The translations under genes were made by a program, and so were the position numbers. Shown here one piece after another: positions 1 to 28,032 of a stretch of 39,080 nt of DNA. Below the pieces are notes generated by a model, which searched no databases, was not told where the DNA came from, and saw only the letters and a program-made list of their open reading frames with translations. Origin of the DNA: a virus. Lineage: Duplodnaviria; Caudoviricetes. Numbering within the stretch: position 1 is the stretch's first letter; each line of letters opens with the position of its first letter. Where the stretch lies: positions 1 to 39,080 of the IMG/VR virus record IMGVR_UViG_3300048611_000146. The stretch is one strand, 5' to 3'.

Positions 1-22
1 CTTGATGACAACCTTGCAAAGC
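1..22. repeat. Terminal direct repeat, copy 1 (assembly circularisation overlap)
   Basis: CTTGATGACAACCTTGCAAAGC at 1-22 is identical to 39059-39080, and the reading frame is continuous across the join. Confidence 0.95.
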
Positions 23-1167
23 AGCTTGACGACGCCGCAGCGTCGCTTGAGCGCAACACGGCTGAGGGCGCAAACCGCATTGAGATGATTCCGCCGCGCG
101 CGCTCGATGAGGTCAAGAAAGCCTTCGATGATCAGATCGAGGCCGCAGGGCAGCGTTCCTACACCGGCAAGATTCTGCGCGGCGCAAAGAACAAGCTCGC
201 TGAGCGCGTCAGTTCCGCAACGGACGGCCTCTATGGTCAGGCGCTCGGCGTGTTCTCCGGCGGCAAACGCCTGCGGGAGTCGATCGATACCGGATACTCC
301 GCCTTCAACATGAAGCCCTGGCAGCTTGAGCAGGCGCTTGAGGGTACTGGCGGACCCGGCGGGATGCTGACGCAGGAGGAGTTCGAGGGCTTCGCCTTCG
401 GCTTCGCGCGCGCCCTTCAGGACAAGATTGACGCCAATGACATTTCCGCCGTTCGCGGATTCCTGCGCAATAAGGCGATGCAGGCGAAGCTCAAGGAAAT
501 GATGGGGTCCGGCTATGCCGGGTTCATGAGCCGGATGCAACGCATTGTGAACCGGCAGGACTTCGACAACTTCGTCACCAAGGGCTCACCGACCGCGCGC
601 ATTCAGGCGGACATTGATGACGCGACGGATGAGGACGTTGTCACCCGCGTCTTTGAGAACCTCGGCGCGCAATCCGGCGGCGGCGGAGCGCCTTCAATCC
701 GGGGAGCGATTGCCTCAGCCACGATCAAACCGATCGCGCGCGGCGCGGCGGACTTCTGGCGCAAGCTGCGCTATCGCGGCATTGGCGACCCGGAAATAAA
801 CGAGCGCCTCGGCAAGCGCATGTTCACGCCTATGACTGACACACAGATGCGGCAGTTGCGGCGGGACCTTACCAACGCGCCGCAGCCTCGGCTTACTGAG
901 CTTCCTGACCGGCTGGGGCTTGCGTCCGGGGTTGCGGGCGCCCAAGCGGCGGGCCGTGACGCCGTCGATGCGGGGCAGTCTGAGGACCGCGCTGAGGTTC
1001 TCGTCGAGGACTTCGACGCCGCGCTTATGGAGCGCTACCTAGACCCGTCAACCTCGCCTGAGGAGCTGAAAGCGATAGAGGCGCATTTCGGGCCGCAGGC
1101 GGCTGAGCTGTACGCAATGCGCCTGCAGCGGATGAGCGTTGCGCGCGGCGCCGGTGCGCCTCAATGA
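1..1167 (+). CDS. C-terminal part of a large DNA ejection / internal virion protein (continues from 37709; about 838 aa in total)
   Basis: Frame 1 is open from base 1 (LDDNLAKQLDD...) through the ORF-track start at 85 to TGA at 1167. It joins in frame with the ORF from 37709. The protein is helical and Ala/Gly-rich and follows two other ejection-type genes. Confidence 0.7.
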   Translation, partial: LDDNLAKQLDDAAASLERNTAEGANRIEMIPPRALDEVKKAFDDQIEAAGQRSYTGKILRGAKNKLAERVSSATDGLYGQALGVFSGGKRLRESIDTGYSAFNMKPWQLEQALEGTGGPGGMLTQEEFEGFAFGFARALQDKIDANDISAVRGFLRNKAMQAKLKEMMGSGYAGFMSRMQRIVNRQDFDNFVTKGSPTARIQADIDDATDEDVVTRVFENLGAQSGGGGAPSIRGAIASATIKPIARGAADFWRKLRYRGIGDPEINERLGKRMFTPMTDTQMRQLRRDLTNAPQPRLTELPDRLGLASGVAGAQAAGRDAVDAGQSEDRAEVLVEDFDAALMERYLDPSTSPEELKAIEAHFGPQAAELYAMRLQRMSVARGAGAPQ

Positions 1168-1342
1168 GCAGCGCCGGGACGTAGCCAAGCGCCAGCATCA
1201 GAAGAAACAGCGCAGGCCAGAGCAGGGAAGGCTCAGTCCGGCTTGCCGCTTCAGTGATGGGCCACACCAGGAACAGGATCGGGACCAACGCAAAGCTGGT
1301 CAGAACGCTCACTACGCTCAGCACCTTCAAAGTCTTGGACAT
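1025..1342 (-). CDS. Small two-TM inner-membrane protein, possible superinfection exclusion moron
   Basis: MSKTLKVLSVVSVLTSFALVPILFLVWP...LLWPALFLLMLALGYVPALLI contains two hydrophobic helices. It fills the 1168-1353 gap on the opposite strand, and its 3' tail overlaps the end of the ejection gene. Confidence 0.5.
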   Translation of the reverse strand: MSKTLKVLSVVSVLTSFALVPILFLVWPITEAASRTEPSLLWPALFLLMLALGYVPALLIEAHRRRAQRSSAAGALRTAQPPAARNAPLSLSAPQARLTGLGSAP

Positions 1343-1353
1343 GACGGAGCCCC

Positions 1354-3387
1354 ATGGCTGATCTGGCACAACAAATAGGCCAGTTTCTCGCGAAACGTAA
1401 GGCCGTGGTCTCGCAAATCCTTGCCCAAGGCGGGGAGCGGGAGCAGGCCCTCCTCAAGCAATACGGCGCCCCGTCGACCCTGGACGCCGTCGTTGCCGGG
1501 GCTCAGCAGGGCTTTGCGCACGGCTTTGCGGATGACATCGAGCGCATGAATGACCCGGACGGGGTCGCCAAGGCGCAAATCCGCGCCCAGGCGGCTCACC
1601 CGGGCGCCTACACGGCCGCAACCCTTGCCGGGACAATGCTGACCGCCGGGGCTCTCCGGGGCGCTGGGGGCGTCATTGGCCGGCAGAGGGCCGCTGGAGC
1701 CCGGGCGGGCTCCCGCGCCTCTGGGGCCGCTGGAGGCAGCGCCTGGGCGTCAAAGAACGCGGAACGCGCCCGGCAGATCGAGGAGAAGTGGTCTCAGTTC
1801 CCCTTACCCGGCGTCAAGCCGCAGCACCGGGGCTTGGTCATGGACGCCGGCCACGGCGCCGCCTGGGGCTATGGCGGGGCTGACGTGCAGGAGAGTGAGG
1901 GCGCGGCTGATCCTCGCCGCTTCTGGCGGGCCATTGCCGGCGGCGCTGGGGCGGCCGTGGCGGCCCCGCTGAGCGCCTCCGCGACGGTGGCGGCAAGCAA
2001 TATCCCACTCGCCTTCGGCAAGCGCCGGGCGTTCTCAAAACGGATGCTTGAACCGCCGGGCGTCACCCGGGAGAACCCCGCTGGCCGGCCCCGGGATGCA
2101 ATCGAGATCGCCCGCAGCATGGATGAAAGCGCGGCGCGCGGCGCGACCGGCTCCGGCATCATCAGGCGTGACACCGTCCCGCCGCTGAGGTCAGAGCAGC
2201 CGCACATTCAGAAGCTCGCGGATCAGTCGCTTGCCCCGGTCGCCGGAAGCAGGATTGCGGAGCTGCGGGGTCAGCAGCGTGAATCCGCCGCCTCAGCGCT
2301 TGAGGCTGCAGAGGTCAACAAAAGCGGCGTCGGTCTCCGCCAGCAGCCGGACAAGGTCGGTGAGTATGTCAACGCGATGATGGAGGCTTTCCACCGCCGG
2401 GACATTCAGGCGCTGCAGTCGTGGATATCGACGCTGCGGGGCGCTAACCGGCGCAACCCGGAAATCATGCCGCGCGTCCGTGCTTCCGTCGCCCGCAGCC
2501 TTGCAACGCAGGAGCGGGCGCAGCCGGGCCTCAATGACACTCCTGAGGTCACCGCCTTCCTGCGGGCGCTCGGCATGGGACCCAGCGCCAAGGGCGGCCG
2601 TCCTGGCGCGCTGGCGACGGCGCGGGCCGGCGGGGCTGAGCGCTTCCCGACGCAGCGCTATGAGGATGCGCTGGCGCGCACGGCGGAGGAAACCCCTATG
2701 CGCCCGCGTCACGCTGAGCGCCTGCGTGAGGAAATGGAGGGCTTTGAGCCAGGACCCTACACGGCGCCGGCTGACCGCAGGCGCGGACCTCCGGTGACGG
2801 CGCGCGGGGATGACCAGCCCTACTTTCTCAACCCGACAGACTTTTTCAAGGAGGGCAGGGTCAACAATGCCGAGGTCAACATGGCGGGCTTTATGTCCGG
2901 GCCTATCGCCTACGGCCTTGAGCGCGGCGCTGTCGGTCCCGCTGACCGCTTCATGTTCGGATCCCCGGAGGATGAGCCGATCGAGGGGGTATTTTCCGAA
3001 GTCCAGGCGCCGCCGCAGGCTCAGCCTGAACAGGGCCTGCTTGCGGACCTCCGCCCGGCCGCTCCGGCGCGTCAGGCGCCTATGCAGCAGGCTCCCGCGG
3101 CAGCTCCGCCCGCCGCCGTTCCTGCGCCTCAGCAGGCCGCGCCTGCCCCACCGCCGAGCGGTAACGCGGTCAGGGACATTCAGCGGCTCCTCTTGTCAGC
3201 GGGCTTTGACGTAGGCCCTGAGGGGGATGACGGCATCATCGGCGGCAACACCCAGGCCGCAATCGAGGCGTTCGCGCGTATCTCAAACATGCCGGGAGAG
3301 ATCACGCCGGAGCGCGTGCTTGCGCGCCTGCAAGCCTACCCGCGTGAGCGCCTGGCTGAAGACCTTACAGCCGCAATCGGACAGTGA
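1354..3387 (+). CDS. Putative ejection/internal virion protein with C-terminal peptidoglycan-binding (PG_binding_1-like) domain
   Basis: GGAG RBS. N-terminal AGAQQGFAHGFADD motif and Gly/Ala-rich hydrophobic segments, then a Pro/Ala/Gln linker. The C-terminus SGNAVRDIQRLLLSAGFDVGPEGDDGIIGGNTQAAIEAF fits the PG-binding consensus (V..LQ..L...GY....DG.FG..T..A...F). Confidence 0.65.
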   Translation: MADLAQQIGQFLAKRKAVVSQILAQGGEREQALLKQYGAPSTLDAVVAGAQQGFAHGFADDIERMNDPDGVAKAQIRAQAAHPGAYTAATLAGTMLTAGALRGAGGVIGRQRAAGARAGSRASGAAGGSAWASKNAERARQIEEKWSQFPLPGVKPQHRGLVMDAGHGAAWGYGGADVQESEGAADPRRFWRAIAGGAGAAVAAPLSASATVAASNIPLAFGKRRAFSKRMLEPPGVTRENPAGRPRDAIEIARSMDESAARGATGSGIIRRDTVPPLRSEQPHIQKLADQSLAPVAGSRIAELRGQQRESAASALEAAEVNKSGVGLRQQPDKVGEYVNAMMEAFHRRDIQALQSWISTLRGANRRNPEIMPRVRASVARSLATQERAQPGLNDTPEVTAFLRALGMGPSAKGGRPGALATARAGGAERFPTQRYEDALARTAEETPMRPRHAERLREEMEGFEPGPYTAPADRRRGPPVTARGDDQPYFLNPTDFFKEGRVNNAEVNMAGFMSGPIAYGLERGAVGPADRFMFGSPEDEPIEGVFSEVQAPPQAQPEQGLLADLRPAAPARQAPMQQAPAAAPPAAVPAPQQAAPAPPPSGNAVRDIQRLLLSAGFDVGPEGDDGIIGGNTQAAIEAFARISNMPGEITPERVLARLQAYPRERLAEDLTAAIGQ

Positions 3388-3953
3388 CGGAGGCTGCAAT
3401 GCAGATGAACCGCACGCGTGAGCGTGCTGACCGCTTTGAGCTGCGCGGATGGACCTATCCGTTTCACCGTCAGGTTGATGGGCCGGTCCTCTCCCGGCTT
3501 GACCCGGACACTGCGGAAACCCAGTGGCTTCCGCTGCGCGGCCGCAAGTACCCGGTTGAGGTCAGGCCCGGTGACGTGCAGAGCATCAGCCGGCAGGTTC
3601 TCGGGATTGAGCTTCCGCCGTGCAAGGGGCTCAACACCCAGACGGAACCGCCGTCGGCAGAGGGGGAGCGCGTCACTGAGACGGACGGTGAGCCTATCCC
3701 GGACTCCAGCGCGCCTATGGTGTCAGAAGCACTGCGGGCGCTCATGCGGCCTGAGGAGAGCATTGCAGATGCAAAGGCCCGCCTCACGGCGGAGCTGCGG
3801 GCGGAGTTCGAGGAGGTCAACAACCTCAACATGAGTGGCGCCGGGGAGCGCGCCTGGGAGGATGGAAATACCGTCGCTGACCGGTTCAAGGAATTGTCCG
3901 CGCTGTTCGATGAGCTGGCGCGCCTCGGGGACGTGAGGCCCGCAAATGGGTGA
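3384..3953 (+). CDS. Hypothetical protein
   Basis: 189-aa ORF with a GTGA overlap on the upstream stop; alternative ATG at 3399 after GGAGG. Overlaps the next gene. Confidence 0.7.
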   Translation: MTEAAMQMNRTRERADRFELRGWTYPFHRQVDGPVLSRLDPDTAETQWLPLRGRKYPVEVRPGDVQSISRQVLGIELPPCKGLNTQTEPPSAEGERVTETDGEPIPDSSAPMVSEALRALMRPEESIADAKARLTAELRAEFEEVNNLNMSGAGERAWEDGNTVADRFKELSALFDELARLGDVRPANG

Positions 3954-4404
3954 CGGGTCGGAGGCGTTATCCATCGATGCACTTATGCTCAACATGGTCA
4001 GCCGAATGGGCGCCATGGAGCAGGCGATCAGGCAAGCCCCTACGCATGAAAAACTAGGGCTGATGTTCAATGAGGTTCGCCGGGATTTTGGCGAGCGCTT
4101 CACGTCATCAGAGGGTCATGTCCGCACGCTGATTGAGAAGTACGAGTCTGACAATCAGCAGCGGACCACTGCCAACAACGTGCAGATGCAGGGCTGGGCC
4201 TCCTCTGCCGCGAAGGCGGCGGCGAAGGAGGCTTTAGCCGAACAGCGCCAAATTGAAGCAGAGGCGCGCGCCGCCGTTCAGAAATCTGACGAGGACTTGG
4301 AAAGGCGCATTCGCACCGCCAACGCGAGAAGCTGGGGCAGCGTCATCATTGCGGTTGCCGGCGTCGGGTATGGCGTCGCCAAGGGCCAGGGATGGATTCC
4401 GTGA
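3946..4404 (+). CDS. Coiled-coil protein with single C-terminal TM helix (holin/XhlA-like topology candidate)
   Basis: GAGG RBS. Helical body rich in A/E/Q/R, ending in hydrophobic WGSVIIAVAGVGYGVA. Located upstream of the endolysin. Confidence 0.65.
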   Translation: MGDGSEALSIDALMLNMVSRMGAMEQAIRQAPTHEKLGLMFNEVRRDFGERFTSSEGHVRTLIEKYESDNQQRTTANNVQMQGWASSAAKAAAKEALAEQRQIEAEARAAVQKSDEDLERRIRTANARSWGSVIIAVAGVGYGVAKGQGWIP

Positions 4405-5606
4405 TAAAAAACATGCTGAGCGGACTCAAGGATCGCTTCAAACGGAAGCCGAAGGCGGAAAGCCCGAAGCTCCCGCCGCGCGCTGACCGGATCACCCGCG
4501 CGGTCCTGTGGTCGGCGGACAAGGTTCTCCTGTTCGCCTGCCTTGGCGGCATCACCGCCGTCTACATTCTGGACGGGCTGTTCTTCGCTTCAGTCGGCGG
4601 TGAGCTATGGGTGCTGTTTATCCTTGTCGGCCTCGTCCTGCGCTCATTCGTCGTCGGCGGCGGCGTGGTGCTGCAGGGCATTCGCGGACGCCCGGGAACG
4701 TTCATAGCGGGGCTGACGCTTCGCTCTCTGCAAATCTTCTGCGCCGCCGGCATCGTGCTCGCGCCGATCAACTTTTTCGCGGCGTCGCACTTTCAGAAAG
4801 CCTACGAGGCGGAATCGATCGGGGCCTCTGCGACGGCCTCGACCGGCAGCAAGGAGGCGCGGATTGCCCGCCTTGAGAAGCGCCGGACGGATGCGGCGGC
4901 TAACCGTGACGTTGCCATTGCCGCGTCTAAGAGCACGGCTGAAATCATTAAGGACCAGGTTGTAGGTACGTCCTCGGCAGACAATGAAACGTTGCGCCTG
5001 GCAGCGGACAACGCCGCGCAGGCCGTCACCAACTTCACGACGACTGACGCGGAAATCAGCGACCAGATCGAGGCCATCGAGAAGGAGCGTGAGGACGTCG
5101 TCACCACGGCGGCGGGGCAGGAGGCGCTGAGCTTCCATACCTGGCCGGTGTTCATCTGGCTGGGCGGACAATTCCCGGTCACGGACATTGACCCCGCAAC
5201 CGGCCTGCACAAGCCGGGCTCGGATATCATCTATGCCAACTGGATACTGCTCTACCTCGCGCTGCTGATTGAGGTCTGCGTGTTCTTCGCGCTCGGCGCC
5301 TATACGCAGCTCCACGGCTACTTCCGCGCCATGCTGGACGGGCTCAAAAGGGAAGCGCCGGCCGCAACGATCACCGTCAAAACCGTTCCGGCTGCGGAGG
5401 TCTTCGATATCGAGGACTTGAATGATGAGCCGGCGGAAACCTCGCCGGTCAATGACCCTGACGCGGCCCGGCGTGAGCACCTTGCCCGCATCGGCAAGAA
5501 AGGCCGTGAGTCTCAGGAGCATCAGCGCGCGGGAGAGCAGACCCCTTTCCGCGTCCCGCTCGATGACTGGCGTGAGCGTTCGCGGATGAACGGAGCCGGC
5601 CAATGA
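4392..5606 (+). CDS. Multi-pass membrane protein with long coiled coil (DUF4407-like topology)
   Basis: Three to four N-terminal hydrophobic helices, an Ala-rich coiled coil (KEARIARLEKRRTDAAANRD...ISDQIEAIEKERE), a further TM (IIYANWILLYLALLIEVCVFFALG) and a charged tail. The start may be GTG 4401 or ATG 4413. Confidence 0.75.
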   Translation: MDSVIKNMLSGLKDRFKRKPKAESPKLPPRADRITRAVLWSADKVLLFACLGGITAVYILDGLFFASVGGELWVLFILVGLVLRSFVVGGGVVLQGIRGRPGTFIAGLTLRSLQIFCAAGIVLAPINFFAASHFQKAYEAESIGASATASTGSKEARIARLEKRRTDAAANRDVAIAASKSTAEIIKDQVVGTSSADNETLRLAADNAAQAVTNFTTTDAEISDQIEAIEKEREDVVTTAAGQEALSFHTWPVFIWLGGQFPVTDIDPATGLHKPGSDIIYANWILLYLALLIEVCVFFALGAYTQLHGYFRAMLDGLKREAPAATITVKTVPAAEVFDIEDLNDEPAETSPVNDPDAARREHLARIGKKGRESQEHQRAGEQTPFRVPLDDWRERSRMNGAGQ

Positions 5607-7105
5607 GCACGCGCCGCACCGTAGCAATGGACCTTGGAACGACCAACAGCTGCATTGCGTTTCATGATGGGCGGAAGGCCTACGTGATCGAGCAGGCAAA
5701 CGGAGATGACATTCTCCCTTCCGTCGTTGCGTTCAAGTTGGACCCGCTTGACATCGTGGCCGGCAATCCCGCGATCACGGAAGGGCGGATTACGCCTGAC
5801 CTCTGCTACCGTCATGTAAAGCGCCTGCTCGGCGTCCGCTGGCATTCCCAGGAGGATCAGGGGTCGCAAGCCTGCGAAGGCCCGGACGGCATGACCTGGC
5901 TGCGTGGGCCGGTTGTCGACGGTCGGCCGGAGGGACGCTGGGCGCCGGCGGAGGTTCAGGCCGTCATCATCAAGACTCTGCTCGATGCGGCGGAGACGCA
6001 TTTCGGAGAGCGCCCGACGCGCGCGCTCATCACTGTCCCGGCGGACTTCGATGACCCGCCGCGCCGGGCCACAATCGAGGCCGCGCGCATCGCCGGGCTT
6101 GAGGACGTAACGCTCCTCAATGAGCCTACGGCGGCGGCCATCGCCTACGGCGCCGGGCGCTCGAAATTTGCCCGGATTGTCGTCTATGACTGGGGCGGCG
6201 GAACGTTCGACATCAGCGCCATCAGGGCGGGCGGCCCTCGTATCGAGGTTCTCGGATCGAACGGCAACGCCAAGCTCGGCGGTTCTGACATCACGCGCCG
6301 CATCGTCCATGAGCTGCGCCGCCGCTGGATAGCGATGGGGCGCCCGGCGCTGGCTGAAAATCACGCAACCTCGACCCGGCTATGGGATGCGGCTGAGGAG
6401 GCAAAGATCGCGCTCAGCACGCAGTCAAAGCACACGGTCCACGTTCAGACCATCGCGAACGTCGAGGGCCTTGGCTTCACTGACCTGCGTGAGACGCTGA
6501 CAAAGCAAGAGCTTGAGGAGATGGTCAGCGACCTTGTGCAGGAAACGATTGACTGCTGCGCCAGGGCGCTTGAGCAGGCAGGCCTTACAAAGGATGACGT
6601 TGATGAGGTCATCCTTGTCGGCGGTCAAACAAGAATGCCGCTCGTCCAGGAGCGGGTTGCGCAGTTCTTCGGCAAGAAGCCGCAGACGAAGCTGAGCCCT
6701 GAAAAGGTCGTGGTCCTGGGCGCCGCAACGCGCGCGGCGCAGCTTGACAACCGCGGCGGGGATGACCGCTTCACCCTGTCTGACCGCTCCTCACACTCAA
6801 TCGGTATCGAGACGCTGGACAACGTCCTTTTCGTGGTGATCCCGCGCGGTGCGCCGCTTCCTGCAAGCCGCGCGGTTGCGGTGACGAACGCGCGAGACAA
6901 TCTCAGCGCGCTTAGCGTGCTCATCCGGCAGGGTGAGGAGGACCGCGCGGACCTCAACGTCCTGCTTGCCGAGGAAGTCTTGACGGTCGAGCCCTGCCCG
7001 GCCGGCGAGGTCGAAGAGGTCCTGAATTTTCTGATCGATGATAGCGGAATGGCGCGCGTCACCTACGGCGAGCGCATCCTCTATGAGGGGGCGGCCGTTG
7101 AATGA
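5603..7105 (+). CDS. Hsp70/DnaK-family ATPase lacking the helical lid
   Basis: All three Hsp70 signature regions are recognisable: MDLGTTNSC, VYDWGGGTFDIS and VILVGGQTRMP. Also ITVPADF, NEPTAAAIAYG, AEEAKIALS and SIGIET. At 500 aa it ends within the beta substrate-binding domain. Confidence 0.93.
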   Translation: MSTRRTVAMDLGTTNSCIAFHDGRKAYVIEQANGDDILPSVVAFKLDPLDIVAGNPAITEGRITPDLCYRHVKRLLGVRWHSQEDQGSQACEGPDGMTWLRGPVVDGRPEGRWAPAEVQAVIIKTLLDAAETHFGERPTRALITVPADFDDPPRRATIEAARIAGLEDVTLLNEPTAAAIAYGAGRSKFARIVVYDWGGGTFDISAIRAGGPRIEVLGSNGNAKLGGSDITRRIVHELRRRWIAMGRPALAENHATSTRLWDAAEEAKIALSTQSKHTVHVQTIANVEGLGFTDLRETLTKQELEEMVSDLVQETIDCCARALEQAGLTKDDVDEVILVGGQTRMPLVQERVAQFFGKKPQTKLSPEKVVVLGAATRAAQLDNRGGDDRFTLSDRSSHSIGIETLDNVLFVVIPRGAPLPASRAVAVTNARDNLSALSVLIRQGEEDRADLNVLLAEEVLTVEPCPAGEVEEVLNFLIDDSGMARVTYGERILYEGAAVE

Positions 7106-7109
7106 GGAA

Positions 7110-8249
7110 ATGAGCACAAGCCGGGCGGGTCAGGAGCTTATCGCCAGCTTCGAGGGCGCACCGCGCCTGAAGGCCCGCCTTTGTGAGGGCGGGAAGTGGG
7201 AGCTGAGTTACGGCTGCACGACCTGGGATGACAACCGGCCGGTGAGGGAGGGTGACACCTGCACGCCGGATGAGGCTCTGCGTCTGTTCGCCTTTCACCT
7301 TCGAGAAAAGGAGGAGATCGTTGAGCGACACGTCCGCGTCCCGCTCAATCAGCATCAGTATGACGCGCTCGTCTCTCTGGTCTACAATATCGGTGAGGGT
7401 GACGGCCCTGCTGACGGGTTCGAGGATTCCACCGTCCTGCGCATGATCAATGCGACCGGCGGGCCGCGTTGGATGGACGCTGCGGACGCGTTTGCGAAGT
7501 GGGTTTATGCCACGAAGCTGGCAAGCCAGCGCAAGGCAGATGAGCCGATTGCGTGGTACACCGGCCCTGACGGTCAGGCGGTTCCCTACAAGCGCGCACT
7601 CAACGGACTGCTCCGGCGCCGGCACGCTGAGGCATGCATGTTCATGAGCCGTGACTGGCGGCAGGCCTGCGGCCCTGGCTCACCCTTCATCAAGCTTGAG
7701 ACTGAGCAGTTTTGGAACGCTGAGCGTGGCCGGAATGAGGACCGCATCCTCATCCGAACCGAGTTCACCCAAATCTGGGAGATCGCGCGTCACTACCCGT
7801 TGCCGGAGGCTGCGCCAGATCCCAAGCCGGCGGTTGCGGCCGTCACTCCGCCGCCAGCGCTCAAACCCGCCGCGCCGCCTCCGGTCGTGGTTACGCCTTC
7901 CGCCGCAAAGCCGCAGATCACGCCGCCGGAAAACGTCGCGGTCGACGTGAGCAATTGGAACATCGGCAAGATCAAGGTCGAGAACGGCGCGAAGATCATG
8001 GAAACGTCGGATCGCGCCGTCGCGGTCGGGCTCAAGCTCGGCGGGATCGCCGTCAAAACGTTCGTCCAGCATCGCGTCATCCCGGCGTGGATGGGCGCGA
8101 TTACTTTTGAGGTCATTACTGACCCGGTGATGGTCGCGGCCATCACTATCGGCGTTGTCGGCGTGTGGACCTGGGGCCACTCCCTAGTTGTCGCCGGCCG
8201 GAGGAAGCGTGCGAAGCACGCCGAGACCGCATCGACGCTGTCATACTGA
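7110..8249 (+). CDS. Endolysin, GH24 phage lysozyme with Pro-rich linker and C-terminal TM segments
   Basis: ELIASFEGAPRLKARLCEGGKWELSYGCT, PLNQHQYDALVSLVYNIG, AADAFAKWVY and LNGLLRRRHAE match the phage muramidase pattern. Start is ATG 7110 (GAGG upstream) or TTG 7098; the ORF-track start at 7038 is probably too long. Confidence 0.88.
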   Translation: MSTSRAGQELIASFEGAPRLKARLCEGGKWELSYGCTTWDDNRPVREGDTCTPDEALRLFAFHLREKEEIVERHVRVPLNQHQYDALVSLVYNIGEGDGPADGFEDSTVLRMINATGGPRWMDAADAFAKWVYATKLASQRKADEPIAWYTGPDGQAVPYKRALNGLLRRRHAEACMFMSRDWRQACGPGSPFIKLETEQFWNAERGRNEDRILIRTEFTQIWEIARHYPLPEAAPDPKPAVAAVTPPPALKPAAPPPVVVTPSAAKPQITPPENVAVDVSNWNIGKIKVENGAKIMETSDRAVAVGLKLGGIAVKTFVQHRVIPAWMGAITFEVITDPVMVAAITIGVVGVWTWGHSLVVAGRRKRAKHAETASTLSY

Positions 8250-8261
8250 AGGAGGCCGGGC

Positions 8262-8621
8262 ATGTTTGCAGGATTCCTTGGCTGGGCCGGCGGCGCCTGG
8301 AATTGGTTTATGAAGTCGCCGGTCGCGCAATTCGGCGCGTTCTGCGTCGGCCTCATTTTCGCCTGGAGCGTGGCGGTCAACCGGCTGAAAGCCGAGGGCG
8401 CGCGGGAACAGAAACGCATCAATGACGCACTCAACGCCCGTGAGCACGCTGAAATGGTCACGGCTAAATCGGAGGTCACCAATGAATTGCAAGCGCGCGT
8501 CACACGCGCTGAAGCGGCTGTTGCTCGTCAGCCTCACTTGCGCAGCACTAGCGAGCTGCGCCGGGACGCCCCGGAGCTTGCCGCCCTCATCCTCGGACCT
8601 GATCCGGGAAACGGGCAGTGA
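8262..8621 (+). CDS. Inner-membrane spanin (Rz-like)
   Basis: AAGGAGG RBS. N-terminal TM (VAQFGAFCVGLIFAWSVAV) followed by a coiled coil, directly after the endolysin. Confidence 0.75.
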   Translation: MFAGFLGWAGGAWNWFMKSPVAQFGAFCVGLIFAWSVAVNRLKAEGAREQKRINDALNAREHAEMVTAKSEVTNELQARVTRAEAAVARQPHLRSTSELRRDAPELAALILGPDPGNGQ

Positions 8622-8826
8622 TGCGGCCTCGATCATTTGCGGCGGGCTGAAGCCCAAGGCAATGCCGCACTCGCTGCAACAGGCATTCGACGCGCTCCCG
8701 GGCATGACTGAGGGGGAGCGCTTTGAGACCTATCGGGCGCGGCTCACAATCGATCAGCTCGCGGTTTTCGACGCGTTCAACAAAGAGGTCAGCGACGGGC
8801 TGCTCTGGCTGGAAATCTGCAACTGA
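8482..8826 (+). CDS. Outer-membrane lipoprotein spanin (Rz1-like), overlapping the i-spanin
   Basis: GGAGG at 8471-8475, then MNCKRASHALKRLLLVSLTCAALASC with a LASC lipobox and a Pro/Ser-rich segment. It overlaps the Rz-like gene in another frame. Confidence 0.78.
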   Translation: MNCKRASHALKRLLLVSLTCAALASCAGTPRSLPPSSSDLIRETGSDAASIICGGLKPKAMPHSLQQAFDALPGMTEGERFETYRARLTIDQLAVFDAFNKEVSDGLLWLEICN

Positions 8827-8836
8827 GGAGAGAAAA

Positions 8837-8968
8837 ATGCACATTCTAGGCGTGGACGTTTGGACTATGATCGTGACGCTCGGCGTCTGGGCGTTCTTCG
8901 GAATCCCGATCAAGAACGGGTTCTTGTGGGCGTGGCGGAAGGTCACGAACCAGAAGACGCCCGCGTGA
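8837..8968 (+). CDS. 43-aa single-TM protein (holin/antiholin candidate)
   Basis: GAGGAG RBS; MHILGVDVWTMIVTLGVWAFFGIPIKNGFLWAWRKVTNQKTPA. Confidence 0.6.
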   Translation: MHILGVDVWTMIVTLGVWAFFGIPIKNGFLWAWRKVTNQKTPA

Positions 8969-9054
8969 TTCTGTTCAGACTTTGGCTGACACGCGGCGCC
9001 ATGTGCGCCGCGTTTCTGTTTCTGGCCTACGCCGCCTCAGCTCTCTCCTTCTGA
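8965..9054 (+). CDS. Possible 29-aa hydrophobic peptide
   Basis: GTGA overlap with the previous stop; (M)ILFRLWLTRGAMCAAFLFLAYAASALSF. Confidence 0.3.
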   Translation: MILFRLWLTRGAMCAAFLFLAYAASALSF

Positions 9055-9456
9055 TCCGCCGTTTTTCGGGACAACCTGAGGCTTGAAGCCTGGCGCGTTC
9101 GGGTCCGGCAGGCCCGCCATGCCGCTGAGAAACTGCATGATTGCCGCGTTGAACAGGGACAGGGTGAGCGGCTCGCCCTTGAGGTTCTCCTCAAGGTAGC
9201 GCCATGCGCGCATGGTCGCGCGAAACATGGTCGGCCCGCCGACCGCCTCATTCATGACGACGACCGGCTTAGGGCTCAGCCCGGGGTCCGGGAGGAAGGG
9301 TCCGTAACGGACCTCGACCGGCGCTGAAAATTCCCAGCTCATGCCGGGTGAAAGAATGTCTTTCGTCGGCAGCTCGCGCCCGTGCATCACCACCGCCTCA
9401 AGCTCGTCATTGTTGGTGATGCGGTAGACCTCCGGCCCCATCTTTTCAATTTTCAC
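9037..9456 (-). CDS. Hypothetical protein adjacent to attP
   Basis: GTG start with AAGGGGGG RBS; 139 aa. Candidate promoter on the minus strand: TTGGTG-17-TATGCT (9507-9479). Confidence 0.65.
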   Translation of the reverse strand: MKIEKMGPEVYRITNNDELEAVVMHGRELPTKDILSPGMSWEFSAPVEVRYGPFLPDPGLSPKPVVVMNEAVGGPTMFRATMRAWRYLEENLKGEPLTLSLFNAAIMQFLSGMAGLPDPNAPGFKPQVVPKNGGSEGES

Positions 9457-9525
9457 GTCAGCCCCCCTTGTCAGAGAGAGCATACGCGCGCGACATCGAC
9501 TCACCAACACAGAAACTGGCTCCGC

Positions 9526-9717
9526 TGTGAACCGTGTGTGAACCGGCTTTTTACGAGCGGCGAAATTTCAAGCGATAACAAATGCACGCGGGTGTAGCTC
9601 AATGGTAGAGCAGAAGCTTCCCAAGCATATGCCATTCCCACCGCTGCTGAGCCGGTCTGTGAACCATCGCCGCATAGACCCCTGATAGACCGACACTCAG
9701 GCGGATGAGTGTGAACC
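9526..9717. promoter_or_regulatory. attP with four TGTGAACC direct repeats (integrase arm-type sites)
   Basis: TGTGAACC occurs at 9526, 9537, 9658 and 9710, two on each side of the tRNA-homologous core, directly downstream of the integrase. Confidence 0.7.
9588..9626 (+). tRNA. 5' half of tRNA-Gly(CCC), attP core (fragment, not a full tRNA)
   Basis: GCGGGTG TA GCTC AATGGTA GAGC A GAAGC TTCCCAA GC gives the acceptor 5' strand, the D-arm and an anticodon loop with CCC. Similarity stops just after the anticodon loop. Confidence 0.88.
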
Positions 9718-17507: not shown

Positions 17508-17965
17508 AAGCCGAAACCGCAATGATCGTCTGGGAGCCGAAGGTCGCGGACGACCCGCAAGAGCCGGGGCGCATGTCTCGCTATGCCTCAGACCGGCCGC
17601 CGGAGGTCAGGGTTTTCGACAATGACGATGACGAGGCGCACGACCGCTTTGACCGCCTGCCTTGCTCGCTCGGCGCCTGCCTCATGGGGTGGTGCGAGGG
17701 TGACCCGCTGGCGGACGTGTTCCGCGTGTTCCTGTCGGTCGTGGGCGACGGCGTCCCCATCGAGGACGTGCACCGCGTGTTCCTGTCGGTCGTGGGCGAC
17801 GGCGTCCCCATCGAGGACGTGCACCGCGTGTTCCTGTCGGTCGTGGGCGACGGCGTCCCCATCGAGGACGTGCACCGCGAGTTTCTGAAAATCGATGAAT
17901 ACGCCGCGATGATCGGCGGCCGGGAGTTCTTCGGCGTCGAGATTCTCGAGAATGAGGAGGCCTGA
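17504..17965 (+). CDS. Hypothetical protein with in-frame 17-aa triplication
   Basis: GGAGG RBS and ATGA overlap; contains (VFLSVVGDGVPIEDVHR)x3. Confidence 0.7.
   Translation: MKAETAMIVWEPKVADDPQEPGRMSRYASDRPPEVRVFDNDDDEAHDRFDRLPCSLGACLMGWCEGDPLADVFRVFLSVVGDGVPIEDVHRVFLSVVGDGVPIEDVHRVFLSVVGDGVPIEDVHREFLKIDEYAAMIGGREFFGVEILENEEA
17722..17879. repeat. Perfect 51-bp tandem repeat, 3 copies
   Basis: Unit CCGCGTGTTCCTGTCGGTCGTGGGCGACGGCGTCCCCATCGAGGACGTGCA at 17722, 17773 and 17824, plus CCGCG. Confidence 0.95.
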
Positions 17966-17966
17966 C

Positions 17967-18512
17967 ATGCAGGAGGGACCGGACAAGGACTGGAGGGTCA
18001 CGCCAGCTGATCGCTGGCTGATATTTCGGGTCAGGCCGCAGCAGGAAAAGCTGGCGGCCAACTTCCTGGCGCAGATCAGCATCGGTTATCGATATATCGA
18101 GACCGAGCGGCATAGCCGGACGCTGAAGGGGACGGTGAAGCGCATGGTGGCCGCCCTACCTGCCTACCTGCCGTTCATCTGCCCCGCCGGCGCGGACGCG
18201 CTTGAGCTGCGGGATCGGGCCTGCGAGTGCATGTTCGTCAAGGGCCTGCTCACACGCAGATCGGATGGAGTGGCCCTGGAGCTCCGCCCGGACTGGGAGG
18301 ACAGGCTCTGCCTGCCGCGCCGTGAGGAGCCTGCGGGGCCGATCGACTACGTGGTCACGGACCAGGTCCGCCTCACCTGCGGCCCCCTCAAGGGCCTTCT
18401 GGCGCAATGCGTGAACATCGACGACAGCGGGGTTACGGTCGAGTTCGCAAAGCCTTTCCTCTCAACGAACCGCGTCCTCATCCGGCCGGAATACGCAAAG
18501 CGCGCGGCTTGA
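17967..18512 (+). CDS. NusG/RfaH-like late transcription antiterminator (NGN + KOW)
   Basis: NGN-like WLIFRVRPQQEKLAANFL...LPAYL and KOW-like DQVRLTCGPLKGLLAQ. GAGGAGG RBS. It sits at the position where lambdoid phages encode Q. Confidence 0.75.
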   Translation: MQEGPDKDWRVTPADRWLIFRVRPQQEKLAANFLAQISIGYRYIETERHSRTLKGTVKRMVAALPAYLPFICPAGADALELRDRACECMFVKGLLTRRSDGVALELRPDWEDRLCLPRREEPAGPIDYVVTDQVRLTCGPLKGLLAQCVNIDDSGVTVEFAKPFLSTNRVLIRPEYAKRAA

Positions 18513-18856: not shown

Positions 18857-19393
18857 ATGCACCGGCTGCGCCGCCTTCTGAGCTGGCTCATGGACTGGGA
18901 AACGGCCCTCGGGCTGATCCGCCTGGACGATGAGACGGAGGATGAAGTCCGCCGCCGGGTTCACGCCCGCTGCTCGCACGTCCAGATCAGTGACCTCCCG
19001 CGCTTCGATGCTCAGGTCAAACTTGATGACGCTGCCTGTGAGGAGATCGTCGCCGTTTTCCGGGAGCGCTACCCGGGTTCGAGATTCGAGCGGAAAAGGT
19101 CCTGGCCCGCAGCCGTCAGCACGCTCACGGACGGGGAAGCAATCATAGACCTGTGGCTCGGGCATGACTTCGGAGCGGCGCGGGACGGAACGGAGCCGGT
19201 CAGGGTCACGGTAGACTGGCGCCGCCGGCCGGATGCAACCCCGCAGATTCAGGCCGTGCTCAAGCGCAAGCCCGCTGAGCGCCCTGTTTCGTACGAAACA
19301 CCTCAGATCCCAGCAAAGGCGCCGGTGAGAGCAAAGCCGAGCACCACCATGCAGATGCTCAACAGCCGATCCGCGAAAGGTCAGCGCAAATGA
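18857..19393 (+). CDS. Hypothetical protein
   Basis: GGGAGG RBS before ATG 18857 (the ORF-track start at 18407 is probably too long); ATGA overlap with the next gene. Confidence 0.65.
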   Translation: MHRLRRLLSWLMDWETALGLIRLDDETEDEVRRRVHARCSHVQISDLPRFDAQVKLDDAACEEIVAVFRERYPGSRFERKRSWPAAVSTLTDGEAIIDLWLGHDFGAARDGTEPVRVTVDWRRRPDATPQIQAVLKRKPAERPVSYETPQIPAKAPVRAKPSTTMQMLNSRSAKGQRK

Positions 19394-19629
19394 AACAGGC
19401 AGACGCTCAGGCGTGGTGCAGAGCGCGCGGGATCACCCCGAGCGAGAAGCAAATTCAGAGCGTGACCGCTCGACTGGAATGGGCGCGGCAGGCTCAGATG
19501 AATCCGACAATCATCAAGCGCCTGACCGAGCGCCTCAAAACGCTGGGCATCGCCCTTGGCTGGGCGGATGAAGCGGTGGCGGAGCCGCAGAAACAGCCGG
19601 AGGCCCCAGATGCAGGCGAGCCTGGCTGA
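19390..19629 (+). CDS. Hypothetical protein
   Basis: 79 aa, coupled to both neighbours. Confidence 0.65.
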   Translation: MKQADAQAWCRARGITPSEKQIQSVTARLEWARQAQMNPTIIKRLTERLKTLGIALGWADEAVAEPQKQPEAPDAGEPG

Positions 19630-19913
19630 TGCTGTCTCTCGATTCCTTCGATGGCTTGACCGATGAGGAGCGCCGGGACCTTGCCCGCGCCATCGCCTGG
19701 CAGGATGAGGAACCCGACCGGGAGCTGATCCGCTGGGCCGCCCGCATAGGGGAGGCTGCGCTCCGCTGGGCGGTCGCCCGCAAGGGCAGCATCCCTCGCT
19801 ATCGCATGGCGGAAATCACCCGGGCAATTGAGCCCTACATGGACATGCGCCGCATGATCGCCGTGGTCGAGAAAATCCAGACGCGGCCGACCGGCGGCGC
19901 TTGGCTGAACTAG
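19629..19913 (+). CDS. Hypothetical protein
   Basis: 94 aa, TGATG overlap. Confidence 0.65.
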   Translation: MLSLDSFDGLTDEERRDLARAIAWQDEEPDRELIRWAARIGEAALRWAVARKGSIPRYRMAEITRAIEPYMDMRRMIAVVEKIQTRPTGGAWLN

Positions 19914-19923
19914 GAGGCTGAAT

Positions 19924-20115
19924 ATGGCGTCGAAATACATCCTCACGCCTACGGATAACGGGAAGTGGATTCTCACGCGCGAAGAACTCAGAAAGCACCT
20001 CAGCACGTTTGAGGGGCAGCGCACGGAGGTTCACGCTCTCGATGACGTGGGACAAGCGCTTACCCTCATCGCTCGCACTGAGCAGGAGCACATGGCCGAC
20101 TCACAGCACGGATGA
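19924..20115 (+). CDS. Hypothetical protein
   Basis: AGGAGG RBS; 63 aa; ATGA overlap with the methyltransferase. Confidence 0.6.
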   Translation: MASKYILTPTDNGKWILTREELRKHLSTFEGQRTEVHALDDVGQALTLIARTEQEHMADSQHG

Positions 20116-21524
20116 CCGCCGCCAAGGCCAAGACACGGGCAAAGCGCCCTGAAATCAAAACGCCAACGCGCGCACGCACGCGAGGGCCGGCAAAGTCAGT
20201 TGTATTCAGGCCGATTTCCGAGCTAGCGCCTTACGCGCGCAACGCCCGGACCCATTCCGACGCCCAGGTGGCGCAGATCGCCGCGTCGATGCAGCGCTTC
20301 GGCTACACCAACCCGGTCCTGGCCGATGACGAGGGCATTGTGGCGGGGCACGGGCGCGTTCTCGGGGCTGAGCGGCTGTACGCCGCCGGCCGGACGCTCA
20401 AGCTTCCCGGCGGGGCCGACATCCCGGCTGGCATGGTGCCGACCATTGATTGCAACGGCTGGAGCAAGGCGGAGCGCCGCGCCTACATCCTGGCCGACAA
20501 CCAGCTCGCCTTGAACGCCGGGTGGGACATGGACCTGTTGAAGGGCGAGCTGTCCGATCTCATGGCTGACAACTTTGACGTTAGCGTCATCGGGTTCTCG
20601 GATGCTGAATTGGACGCGATCCTGGCGCCGGCGGGTACGCATGGCCTCACGGACCCCGACGCCGCGCCACCGCTGCCCACACGGGCGGTTTCAGTGGCAG
20701 GGGATTGCTGGCTGCTCGGGACGCACCGCCTGCTCTGTGGCGATGCCACGGTGCCGAAGGACGTTGGGCGCGTGCTGGACGGGGTCCGGCCGACGCTGAT
20801 GGCAACCGACCCGCCGTATGGCGTCAATTACGACCCGGCCTGGCGGGAGGAGGCTGGTGTCGGCTCGAAGGGTTCCGCCAAGGGCAAGGTCATGAACGAT
20901 GACCGGGCCGACTGGCGCGCGGCCTGGGCGCTGTTCCCGGGAGCCGTCGCTTATGTCTGGCATGGCGGCCTGCATGCCGGCGTGGTCGACCAGTCGCTCA
21001 GGGCCGCCGGCTTCGAGGTGCGCTCGCAGATCATTTGGGTGAAGACGCGCCCGGTGCTGAGCCGCGGGAACTACCACTGGCAGCATGAGCCTGCGTTCTA
21101 TGCGGTCAAAGGCAAGGACGACGCCTGGCAGGGCAGGTTCGAGCAAGAACATGACGTCGCCGCCTACGCGGTCCGCAGGGACTCGACGGCCAAGTGGCAG
21201 GGCGGTCGCAAGCAGTCGACGGTCTGGTTCATCGAGCATCTCAAGAACGACACGGGCCACGGGACACAGAAGCCGGTCGAGTGCATGCGCCGGCCGATCG
21301 AGAACAACACGGCCCCCGGACAGGCGGTCTACGAGCCGTTCTCGGGCTCGGGCACCACGATCATTGCCGCCGAGATGACGGGCCGCCAGTGCTTCGCCAT
21401 CGAGCTCGACCCGGCTTACGTCGATGTCGCGGTCGAGCGTTGGCAGGCTTTCACCGGCAAGGCTGCGGTCCTGGACCGTGACGGCCGCTCATTCCTGGAC
21501 GTGAAGGTGGAGCGCCATGGCTAG
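20112..21524 (+). CDS. ParB-like domain fused to N6-adenine/N4-cytosine DNA methyltransferase
   Basis: ParB-like PYARNARTHSDAQVAQIAASMQRFGYTNPVL...AGHGR. MTase motifs HRLLCGDAT, TDPPYGV, HGTQKPVE, EPFSGSGTT and IELDPAY, in beta-class order. Confidence 0.92.
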   Translation: MTAAKAKTRAKRPEIKTPTRARTRGPAKSVVFRPISELAPYARNARTHSDAQVAQIAASMQRFGYTNPVLADDEGIVAGHGRVLGAERLYAAGRTLKLPGGADIPAGMVPTIDCNGWSKAERRAYILADNQLALNAGWDMDLLKGELSDLMADNFDVSVIGFSDAELDAILAPAGTHGLTDPDAAPPLPTRAVSVAGDCWLLGTHRLLCGDATVPKDVGRVLDGVRPTLMATDPPYGVNYDPAWREEAGVGSKGSAKGKVMNDDRADWRAAWALFPGAVAYVWHGGLHAGVVDQSLRAAGFEVRSQIIWVKTRPVLSRGNYHWQHEPAFYAVKGKDDAWQGRFEQEHDVAAYAVRRDSTAKWQGGRKQSTVWFIEHLKNDTGHGTQKPVECMRRPIENNTAPGQAVYEPFSGSGTTIIAAEMTGRQCFAIELDPAYVDVAVERWQAFTGKAAVLDRDGRSFLDVKVERHG

Positions 21525-21900
21525 GCCGAAGAAAGGCGAGGAGCATCCGCGCGAGCACTTGCGCACGCCGATCAAGCTCCTGGCCGGCAATGGCGTCCCT
21601 CACGCTGACATTGCCGCAGCGCTGAGGGTGGGCACGGACACGCTGCACAGGTTCTACAAGGAAGAGCTGGATTGCGGCCTGGCGGAGTTGAAGCTTCTGG
21701 CCGTGACGGAATGGACCAAGGCGATGAAGAAAGGGGAGCAGTGGGCGCTCAAGCTGTTCCTCTCGGCGCGCATGGGCATATCGGACAAGATCGTGCATGA
21801 GGGCGGTGACCCGGACAGGCCGATCCAGCACACGATCACCCGAAAGATTGTGCGGCCGGGAGACGTCACCAGCCATCCGGGACCTGATGAGGCGCCGTGA
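21517..21900 (+). CDS. terS: Terminase small subunit
   Basis: MARP start and HTH-like GVPHADIAAALRVGTDTLHRFYKEEL, directly before TerL. Confidence 0.75.
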   Translation: MARPKKGEEHPREHLRTPIKLLAGNGVPHADIAAALRVGTDTLHRFYKEELDCGLAELKLLAVTEWTKAMKKGEQWALKLFLSARMGISDKIVHEGGDPDRPIQHTITRKIVRPGDVTSHPGPDEAP

Positions 21901-23210
21901 TTCGGGAAACCGTCATTGAGACGGCGGAGGCTTTCCTCCCGTTCCTTGAGCCCGCCCGCTACAAAGGACTGTTCGGCGGCCGGGGCTCCGCGAAGTCACA
22001 CTTTTTCGCCGGCCTCATGTGTGAGACCGCACTCGCCTTCCGGGGCTTCCGCGGGATCGGCATCCGCGAGGTGCAGAAGTCGCTGAAGGACTCCAGCAAG
22101 CGCCTGATCGAGGACAAGCTCACGCAGCACAACCTATGGCGCGAGGGGTTCCGGTCTTACACGGACTGTATTGCAACGCCCGGCGACGGGCTGATCAGCT
22201 TTGTCGGTATGCACGGGCAGACGGAGGAGTCCGTCAAATCATTCGAGGGCGCGCGCGTCGCCTGGATCGAGGAGGCGCACAAGCTCAGCAAGTCGAGCCT
22301 GACGCTGCTCCGCCCCACTATGCGCGTGAAGGGCTCCGAGCTTTGGGCGTCATGGAACCCGCGCTTCAAGACGGACGCGGTTGATGAGTTGTTCCGCAAG
22401 TTTCCGCCGACCGGTGCAATTAGCAAGCGGGTGAGCTGGCGGGATAATCCATGGTTCGGTGAAACCGAGCTTGTGCAAGAGCGCTTGGACGACCTCCGGG
22501 ACCGCCCTGAGATTTATCCGCACATCTGGGAAGGGGAGTACGCCTCAATCATGGAAGGCGCCTATTACGCCAAGCAGCTTGCGGCCGCGCGCTCCTCAAC
22601 CCCGCCGCGCATCGGTGTTGTTCCTGCTGACCCGGTCCTCAAAACCTTCACGTTCTGGGATCTGGGCAAGTCAGACAAAACCGCCATCTGGTTTATGCAG
22701 GGCGCCGCCGGCCAGGTGCGGGTCATCGACTACTACGAGAAGAACCGCGAGGAGCTTCCGCATTACGCAAAGGTCGTGTCGGACAAGCCCTATATCTATG
22801 ACACGCACTACCTGCCGCCGGATGCGAAGGCGGAAATCCTCGGAATGCCGCGCACGCGTGAGGCTCAGCTCAGGGCGCTGCTCGGCGTCAACAAGGTCAA
22901 GATCATCAAGGATTATAGCGTCGAGGACGGCATCAATGCCGTGCAGGCGATCCTCCCGCGGTGCTGGTTCGATGAGGTCAGGTGTGAGACCGGCCTTGAA
23001 ATGCTCGGCCGCTATCACCCACGCACCCGCACGCTAAAAACGGGTGAGGTCATGGACATGGAGCCTGACCATGATCCCTCTTCACACGGAGCGGATGCGT
23101 TCCGTTACTTCGCTGTGACATGGCGGGACAAACTCGGTGAGGCGTCGCCGCCCGCGAAGGATTACGCGCCGCCGCGCCGCGCCGGCAGCAAGTGGGGCAG
23201 GTTCTATTGA
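21897..23210 (+). CDS. terL: Terminase large subunit (PBSX-like)
   Basis: Walker A GGRGSAKS, REVQKSLKDS, Walker B AWIEEA and SWNP, with nuclease motifs WDLG and SHGADAFRY. Confidence 0.93.
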   Translation: MIRETVIETAEAFLPFLEPARYKGLFGGRGSAKSHFFAGLMCETALAFRGFRGIGIREVQKSLKDSSKRLIEDKLTQHNLWREGFRSYTDCIATPGDGLISFVGMHGQTEESVKSFEGARVAWIEEAHKLSKSSLTLLRPTMRVKGSELWASWNPRFKTDAVDELFRKFPPTGAISKRVSWRDNPWFGETELVQERLDDLRDRPEIYPHIWEGEYASIMEGAYYAKQLAAARSSTPPRIGVVPADPVLKTFTFWDLGKSDKTAIWFMQGAAGQVRVIDYYEKNREELPHYAKVVSDKPYIYDTHYLPPDAKAEILGMPRTREAQLRALLGVNKVKIIKDYSVEDGINAVQAILPRCWFDEVRCETGLEMLGRYHPRTRTLKTGEVMDMEPDHDPSSHGADAFRYFAVTWRDKLGEASPPAKDYAPPRRAGSKWGRFY

Positions 23211-25217: not shown

Positions 25218-25262
25218 TAACGCACGCGCTGAGCGGATCAGCGCATCACTGAGGACTTAAGT

Positions 25263-26500: not shown

Positions 26501-26511
26501 GAAACAGCGAC

Positions 26512-27612: not shown

Positions 27613-27625
27613 GGAGGACACAGCA

Positions 27626-28030: not shown

Positions 28031-28032
28031 CC

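Follow-up and report, generated by a model that had tools for sequence, protein, structure and literature searches.

J-domain proteins are termed obligate partners of Hsp70 chaperones (PMC3486835), and the route by which C-terminally anchored endolysins reach the cell wall is described as an open question (PMC7143992). There are three precedents for the mechanism proposed below: DnaK assists tail-anchored proteins of E. coli (PMC6794478), Sec-independent lysis by M4Lys needs its C-terminal transmembrane (TM) segment, and Ms6 Gp1 is termed a chaperone-like lysin delivery factor (both PMC7143992). Here we describe an Hsp70 without a helical lid, encoded in the lysis cassette of a tailed phage (IMG/VR record IMGVR_UViG_3300048611_000146, positions 1 to 39,080; this whole stretch of 39,080 nucleotides is called the window). 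It belongs to a group of phage proteins that forms a new Hsp70 subfamily, real and under selection. The earlier note on this DNA knew of no Hsp70 in the lysis module of a 39-kb temperate podovirus. Viral DnaK itself is common: IMG/VR contigs hold full-length copies in large numbers (an estimate of about 2800 stretches), and such copies occur also in huge phages and, where placed in our tree (L045-L124), fall among cellular DnaK, so the unusual part is the lidless form together with its place in the lysis region. We found no description of a phage Hsp70 in lysis or of a lidless phage Hsp70, most subscription papers lying outside the literature search.

The Hsp70 gene (5603..7105, plus strand) encodes a nucleotide-binding domain (NBD), the linker RFTLSD and the beta part of the substrate-binding domain (SBD-beta), with no SBD-alpha. 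The identification as an Hsp70 stands (Pfam HSP70, PF00012, expect value (E) 1.9e-105), but the protein is not a whole DnaK, as it stops at about DnaK residue 496 and the lid is absent. A structural model with a predicted local distance difference test score (pLDDT) of 85.6 comprises the NBD and SBD-beta (strands 391-495) and superposes on the lid-truncated DnaK 7kzu with a template-modelling score (TM-score) of 0.91. The curated DnaK models TIGR02350 and NF001413 are not reached (358.8 against 822.55 and 369.8 against 648), nor are those of HscA (340.3 against a cut-off of 620), whose context is the isc operon with hscB and not phage lysis, and YegD (PRK11678, 67.8 against 331). We examined 24 sequences of this phage-specific family (482-511 amino acids, aa). 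All of them end at roughly one position and none reaches the lid residue I512. The 14 best non-self matches to the window protein are all 482-493 aa long and, at 40-73% identity, outrank every full-length DnaK; identity to any DnaK is only 36-40%. A profile search recovered no additional short member.

Residues were compared in E. coli numbering across 24 family, 102 cellular and 78 viral DnaK rows. The ATP-hydrolysis residues K70, E171, D194 and T199 are kept in all 24 phage proteins, as are E267, K270 and P143, and the wider actin-like set of the NBD (D8, K70, E171, D194, T199 and G341-G342) is found in 23-24 of them. R167 and L392 are present in none, L390 in one, Q378 and Y145 in three each, K55 and N415 in none and R56 in one, while cellular DnaK keeps R167, L392, L390, Q378, Y145, K55, R56 and I512 in 92-102 of the 102 rows. 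K55 and R56 form salt bridges linked to GrpE dependence. L390 and Q378 count among the J-domain contacts of DnaK; so do R167, L391 and L392 (PMC13012618, PMC6843406). The linker is altered but recognisable, with F at position 389 in 18/24, a hydrophobic residue at L391 in 21/24 and D393 in 21/24, and the SBD pocket remains hydrophobic. The F-x-V-x-D pattern resembles that of Hsp110-type proteins (F389 in 18/24; table in PMC6843406), whose helical bundle is absent here. Judged from these sequences, independence of the lidless Hsp70 from the co-chaperones DnaJ and GrpE is likely. As the earlier note had observed, the record encodes no J-domain, and none of the eight six-frame hits to HPD or HTD lies within an annotated gene.

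Phylogenetic analysis with FastTree and a mixture-model quick tree places the family apart from known Hsp70s. In the former, a branch with 100% support separates the 24 phage rows from 183 DnaK, HscA and HscC rows, and the same branch receives 100% in the latter, where HscC lies on the DnaK side; YegD (branch 6.39) is placed among the longest phage branches of the quick tree, likely an artefact. The ratio of nonsynonymous to synonymous substitution rates (dN/dS) is 0.12 for L023/L024 (266 codons), 0.15 for L002/L026, and 0.30 and 0.31 for two distant pairs, one further pair being identical. The phage Hsp70 is thus under purifying selection, and two outcomes that the earlier note had wanted checked, nesting among host dnaK genes and decay at a ratio near 1, were not observed.

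The cassette around this gene is conserved. A family-specific motif scan of three collections returned 43 loci, 11 of which are family members; the other 32 (Hymenobacter 576-aa, HscC-, YegD- and DnaK-like proteins) were dropped, and L016 looked frameshifted. A gene for a membrane protein with four TM segments lies upstream of the Hsp70 gene in 11 of 11 family loci, and an anchored lysin lies downstream in all eight that extend far enough. When the four-TM protein alone served as query, six of six viral loci showed Hsp70 and then the lysin. Motif loci, membrane-query loci and L155, with near-copies merged and the window included, give 12 phage lineages with the order small tail-anchored protein, four-TM protein, Hsp70, C-terminally anchored lysozyme and spanins, which answers in the affirmative the earlier question of conserved synteny; the four-TM and Hsp70 genes overlap in 11 of the 12. 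Beyond these, single-protein IMG/VR scans gave no Hsp70 relative (one weak chance locus) and no four-TM relative, a scan with P0198 gave zero loci, and an Hsp70 alignment scan and an SBD-piece search of 262 genomes were dominated by full-length DnaK. Among cultured phages (50,697 records), no lidless form was seen in the best 40 of 43 matches, and the lysin had no full-length match. The loci L027-L044 (Hymenobacter) and L006-L025 share a conserved 576-aa protein containing DFGTTNTHVAYHDG that has no Hsp70-profile score at E 1e-20; this DFGTTNTHVAYHDG-containing protein is possibly a remote actin-fold family.

The same cassette also occurs without Hsp70. Of ten prophage loci, two have the Hsp70, in seven the membrane gene is immediately followed by the lysin, and one is cut off. 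With the viral locus L135, Hsp70-less loci number eight, and they retain gene X, the small tail-anchored protein and the spanins wherever the contig shows them. The Hsp70 is therefore an add-on to a core of small TM protein, four-TM protein, lysin and spanins. The earlier note's late module of membrane protein and Hsp70 is borne out as conserved, selected and placed ahead of an anchored endolysin, but not as an inseparable pair. None of five prophage contigs or five viral records encodes a J-domain, so a phage J-protein that recruits host DnaK in Hsp70-less cassettes gains no support there. The spanins of the Hsp70-plus locus L125 are very similar to those of the Hsp70-less loci L159 and L157, a likeness that suggests exchange of the block between related phages. 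L012, L033 and L155 lie within alphaproteobacterial DNA. Strong four-TM matches occur in nine of 262 genomes of the family of genome G005, in one more among 401 of its order (these give the ten prophage loci above) and, among 401 genomes of its class, in G005 only. An SpmX-like gene is present in all five four-TM-bearing hosts tested and suggests Caulobacterales (range of SpmX: 10.1101/418723); the prophage hosts look like Caulobacterales, and Hyphomonadaceae is our guess.

In the window, the Hsp70 gene is the fourth of five coupled, overlapping genes, all on the plus strand, and the ORFs (open reading frames) lie where the earlier note had drawn them (3384-3953, 3946-4404, 4392-5606 and 5603-7105, with the lysin ending at 8249), including the ATGA overlap of the four-TM and Hsp70 genes at 5603-5606. 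Two of its gene starts were revised: the lysin most likely begins at ATG 7110 behind GAGG, 4 nt from the Hsp70 gene, and gene X at ATG 3399 behind GGAGG, its longest ORF running from GTG 3384. Gene X (3399..3953) encodes a soluble 184-aa protein with a loosely conserved C-terminal helical region (35% identity to its L033 counterpart); genes like it stand at the same place in Hsp70-plus and Hsp70-less loci, at a mean column identity of 21%, and it had no family match in library scans and nothing in an Atlas search. The next gene (3946..4404) encodes a 152-aa coiled-coil protein, tail-anchored by a single C-terminal hydrophobic segment. In almost every locus a protein of this architecture is encoded ahead of the four-TM protein. 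Its PHROG matches are weak only (one relative at E 0.021 to phrog_689).

The four-TM protein (4392..5606, 404 aa) was characterised from an AlphaFold2 model (pLDDT 85.1, predicted TM-score (pTM) 0.63), lysine/arginine (K/R) bias and relatives. It has three N-terminal TM segments, a coiled-coil hairpin (residues ~123-246), a fourth TM segment, a disordered linker and a tail helix. The K/R bias over 49-50 rows places the N-terminus inside, the hairpin outside and the tail inside, and the hairpin is predicted to be an antiparallel coiled coil of about 10 nm in the periplasm. The family comprises 97 relatives at 50% clustering. DUF4407 (PF14362, cut-off 31.3) matches nine relatives at E 2e-5 to 0.017 (best 24.2 bits) and does not match the window protein; the releasin family DUF2730 has no match in the window and reaches one distant four-TM relative at E 4e-4, below cut-off. 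A PDB fold search with the model returned generic coiled coils only (best Z 11.5), and other fold searches returned unnamed phage proteins (Atlas phage clusters, <0.9). At the tail (residues ~356-401, 5457..5594, plus strand) a basic helix with KG is followed by a [KR][IVL]PVxD-like strand, RVPLDDW in the window; this motif is present in the nearer relatives. A divergent subfamily (L018 8721-9977, L023 3376-4689) carries at the hairpin tip an insertion resembling a peptidoglycan-binding motif, the match in L023 being weak and below cut-off (E 0.021). The tails of L156-L160 and L148, Hsp70-less and of one clade, do not have the motif but a longer helical domain, conserved and cytoplasmic, for which no family was found. 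A helix-turn-helix suspected by eye in Hsp70-less tails was rejected, with just one weak Pfam match in 58 proteins.

The lysin (7110..8249, plus strand, 379 aa) is an endolysin of glycoside hydrolase family 24 (GH24; Phage_lysozyme, E 4.4e-25) with a Pro-rich linker and a C-terminal TM segment (~335-353) followed by RRKRAK. It has no N-terminal signal-anchor-release (SAR) segment: the highest 19-residue hydropathy of the first 40 windows is 0.16, with the TM segment at 335. In all ten Hsp70-plus lysins the most hydrophobic stretch is near the C-terminus, followed by 3-6 K/R. Because the lysin lacks an N-terminal hydrophobic segment and carries a C-terminal TM segment, its catalytic domain must cross the membrane after synthesis. 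The T4 lysozyme substitution T26E traps a covalent adduct. The GH24 triad of the window (7110-7215) and of the L002, L014, L026 and L033 lysins reads E-x9-C-x5-E, with Cys at the D20 position and Glu at that of T26, and these lysins may be natural mechanism variants. The SpmX model NF051871 gives the window lysin 61 against 700 bits, and the lysin has Cys at the D20 position, where SpmX carries D20L/R. The idea that such lysins were the source of full-length SpmX was rejected for the TM region, where a lysin-tail hidden Markov model (HMM) scored five SpmX tails at -1.8 to 1.2 and shuffles at up to 5.9.

Two cassette partners covary with the Hsp70. For an HMM of the four-TM tail, 23 rows were used, 15 near ones and a fragment being excluded; this model scores 6.7-47 bits on 11 of 12 Hsp70-plus tails and on none of the eight Hsp70-less tails above 0 (negative or no match). 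The lysins carry a GPxG loop in nine of ten Hsp70-plus and zero of eight Hsp70-less loci, and a W-x-D-x-[IVL] hairpin, scored by pattern, in nine of ten and one of eight, respectively. L135 and L163, both Hsp70-less, have lysins that nest in a 99%-supported Hsp70-plus clade, and they lack the tail motif and both insertions. Over 11 loci, identity in the tail rises with identity in the Hsp70 (Mantel r 0.43, p 0.009), the value for the TM body being r 0.07; lysin identity rises with that in the Hsp70 at r 0.59 (10 loci). In the pair L002 and L018, identity is 69% in the tail, 75% in the Hsp70 and 18% in the body.

These linked traits (tail motif, lost J-domain site and enlarged lysin) are most simply explained if the four-TM tail stands in for a J-protein in recruiting the Hsp70, which would then hold and deliver the lysin. 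We tentatively favour, at slightly less than even confidence, a reading in which the lidless Hsp70, tethered by the four-TM tail, handles the signal-less endolysin without co-chaperones. The cytoplasmic tail would hold the Hsp70 at the inner membrane and would replace a J-domain as its localiser or stimulator. The Hsp70 would spend ATP, likely without DnaJ or GrpE, on holding the tail-anchored endolysin, its presumed client, and would then pass it on for crossing into the periplasm, perhaps at an export or triggering site formed by the small tail-anchored and four-TM proteins. In Hsp70-less relatives the lysin, being simpler, would cross either on its own or with the help of host DnaK. In the predicted topology the catalytic domain must end outside, with the hairpin outside and the tail inside. 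A wider claim, of a new lysis route in which a phage ATP-driven machine of co-chaperone-free lidless Hsp70 and four-TM receptor moves a tail-anchored endolysin over the inner membrane without Sec signal, SAR or classical holin, seems to us possible but rather doubtful.

Several observations weigh against an Hsp70 that delivers the endolysin. The eight Hsp70-less loci, where the lysin follows the four-TM gene, show that the Hsp70 is dispensable for this cassette type, and five Hsp70-less hosts have only full-length DnaK on other contigs plus one weak 444-aa match, with no lidless copy. The L004 tail, from an Hsp70-plus locus, scores negative with the tail HMM. Changes in Hsp70 presence are few (one on the four-TM tree, support 71, and two on the lysin tree), and DNA proximity and recombination alone give such correlations among tail, Hsp70 and lysin. 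Furthermore, it is the NBD (r 0.47), not the SBD (r 0.07), that the tail correlates with, and R151 and D326 are kept in only 11 and four of the 24 phage Hsp70s, so the coupling between the domains may differ. An Hsp70 in the cytoplasm is unable to pull a chain outwards, and the small TM genes could be ordinary holins. Finally, M4Lys lyses alone when overproduced (PMC7143992).

The earlier statement that there is no classical holin holds in so far as no window gene matches a holin family (Pfam and PHROG scans), but there are three candidates on sequence grounds: the 152-aa tail-anchored protein, which may also be a lysis regulator, the four-TM protein, and a 43-aa single-TM ORF (8837..8968, plus strand) with a strong ribosome-binding site and no PHROG match. 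Between the lysin and this ORF, on the same strand, lie an i-spanin candidate with an N-terminal TM segment (8262..8621), called from sequence and from an L159 counterpart that weakly matches Rz-like PHROGs, and an overlapping o-spanin candidate (8482..8826) with the lipobox LASC, called from its translation, GGAGG and counterparts that weakly match phrog_1275.

The main rival explanation is a lysis timer, which we consider unlikely. The Hsp70's only client would be the four-TM tail, whose K-I-P-V-x-D strand it would bind and release in an ATP-dependent manner, restraining a holin-like four-TM trigger until the ATP level drops or misfolded proteins draw the Hsp70 away. The IscU LPPVK site for HscA resembles the tail motif, which is short, hydrophobic and preceded by basic residues, and the SBD pocket remains hydrophobic. 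The motif tracks Hsp70 presence, and it is the four-TM and Hsp70 genes that overlap, in all lineages but one, while the Hsp70 and lysin genes of the window are separated. A sensor role has also been put forward for a lidless DnaK-like domain of EACC1-protease fusions in defence (PMC12642450). A timer nevertheless leaves the lysin insertions that track the Hsp70 unexplained, tail identity does not follow SBD identity, and the four-TM protein matches no holin family.

It is improbable, in our view, that the four-TM protein and Hsp70 instead stabilise the envelope of the infected cell, keep out superinfecting phage or serve as a decoy for host DnaK-linked sensors, their adjacency to the lysin reflecting late co-expression. 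The long predicted periplasmic hairpin, the weak peptidoglycan-binding match in L023, the DnaK-like sensors of defence modules (PMC12642450) and the targeting of host DnaK by phage RB43 (Rki; PMC3486835) would fit such a role. The five cassette proteins give no PADLOC match, however, the place of the Hsp70 between four-TM gene and lysin is fixed in all 12 lineages, and lysin features covary with it.

A virion assembly factor that folds, or belongs to, tail or ejection proteins is distinctly improbable. Closterovirus HSP70h is such a factor for its virion tail, and the cassette closes the structural operon, behind ejection-type or tail-fibre genes. Yet these upstream structural genes vary among loci while the membrane and lysis neighbours are constant, and the L125 spanins are close to those of L159 and L157, the Hsp70 therefore moving with the lysis block.

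That host dnaK was captured recently and is decaying, or that the assembly is chimeric, is barely credible: the C-terminal truncation and the label 'molecular chaperone DnaK' that sources give to two members are set against the common end of all 24 proteins, their distance from any DnaK, their own fully supported branch, dN/dS values of 0.12-0.31, a GC content at third codon positions (GC3) of 0.76, resembling that of neighbouring genes, and a continuous contig.

That contig, a single Logan contig of a public run at depth 19.9, covers 19100-39080 and then 1-9617, and the read-coverage check urged by the earlier note finds no joint in 3384-8249; the run may be the window's own source. A second study has two 151-bp contigs that are identical to 4653-4803 and 4948-5098, at a depth of about 2, a weak sign of a near-identical phage there. 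The window represents a circular (22-bp overlap of ends), temperate, P22-like podovirus of 39 kb with integrase, repressor, DnaB, TerL, P22 portal and capsid genes, a replication initiator and a methylase; CheckV estimates its completeness at 51%. The cassette ends the late operon, ahead of a tRNA-like att candidate (~9588-9626) and the integrase. At 9588-9626 the 5' half of a tRNA, which we take to be Gly-like, adjoins the integrase, many contigs match and depth falls from 19.9 to 13.1; this is likely attP. A promoter and terminator scan of the phage DNA gave only chance-level results.

Elsewhere, an 846-codon open frame spans the circular junction (~37700-39058 joined to 1-1167), which makes 85-1167 the final part of a larger ejection-type gene. 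Directly 5' of gene X, 1354-3387 encodes a protein of 677 aa, rich in Ala and Gly, whose C-terminal domain is PG_binding_1 (E 6e-5). A weak NusG/UpxY-type match at 17952-18512 (E 0.009) is a possible late antiterminator, and the tRNA-Asn that ARAGORN calls at 33310-33399 (minus strand), within a structural ORF, is probably spurious.

Compared with known chaperones, the phage Hsp70 shares the NBD, linker, SBD-beta fold and catalytic residues with DnaK and with engineered lid-truncated DnaK (7KZU, 7KRU, 5OBU). It differs from DnaK in being lidless, in the replacement of R167, L390, L392, K55, R56 and N415, in the absence of dnaJ and grpE and in forming its own branch. HscA and HscC likewise have a dedicated partner encoded next door, and HscA also lacks K55 and R56, but in both of them R167 and I512 remain and a J-domain partner exists (hscB, djlB/djlC), and the phage family has neither. 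The lid is also naturally lost in the DnaK-like domain fused to EACC1-protease modules (PMC12642450). By its description, that domain, about 50% identical to DnaK, is part of protease fusions encoded in bacterial defence loci, while the phage Hsp70 stands alone in lysis cassettes. A family that keeps the ATPase site over long divergence without lid, J-domain contacts or GrpE contacts offers a natural test of the minimal requirements of an Hsp70.

On the lysis side, Mu releasin gp25 with the SAR endolysin gp22 (PMC9239132) and Ms6 Gp1 are likewise cases of a non-holin phage protein that frees or delivers a membrane-held lysin. Mu gp25 has an N-terminal TM segment and acts on an N-terminal SAR, whereas this cassette has C-terminal anchors and an additional ATPase. 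M4Lys of BSPM4 (PMC7143992) and SpmX (10.1101/418723) resemble the lysin in having the catalytic domain first, a C-terminal TM segment and no signal peptide. SpmX also shares GH24 and the Pro-rich linker, with a dissimilar TM region, and M4Lys differs in having another fold and in lysing alone. The 97 four-TM clusters represent an undescribed lysis component, and natural cassette pairs with and without the Hsp70 make the question of endolysin delivery testable by swaps.

Closterovirus HSP70h is, like the phage protein, a virus-encoded divergent Hsp70 beside a gene for a small hydrophobic membrane protein; compared by description, it serves movement and the virion of a plant RNA virus and has no lysin. 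The eukaryotic pathway for guided entry of tail-anchored proteins (GET; PMC2778870) serves tail-anchored clients. In it, Get3 works with Get1/2, a receptor with a cytoplasmic tether. The likeness to our cassette is functional, a soluble ATPase with a membrane receptor for tail-anchored clients; there is no homology, the coiled coil of the cassette is predicted outside, and the large domain of the client must cross the membrane. If the proposed mechanism is true, the lysin-delivery machine would be a prokaryotic functional counterpart of the GET pathway, built around a naturally minimal Hsp70.

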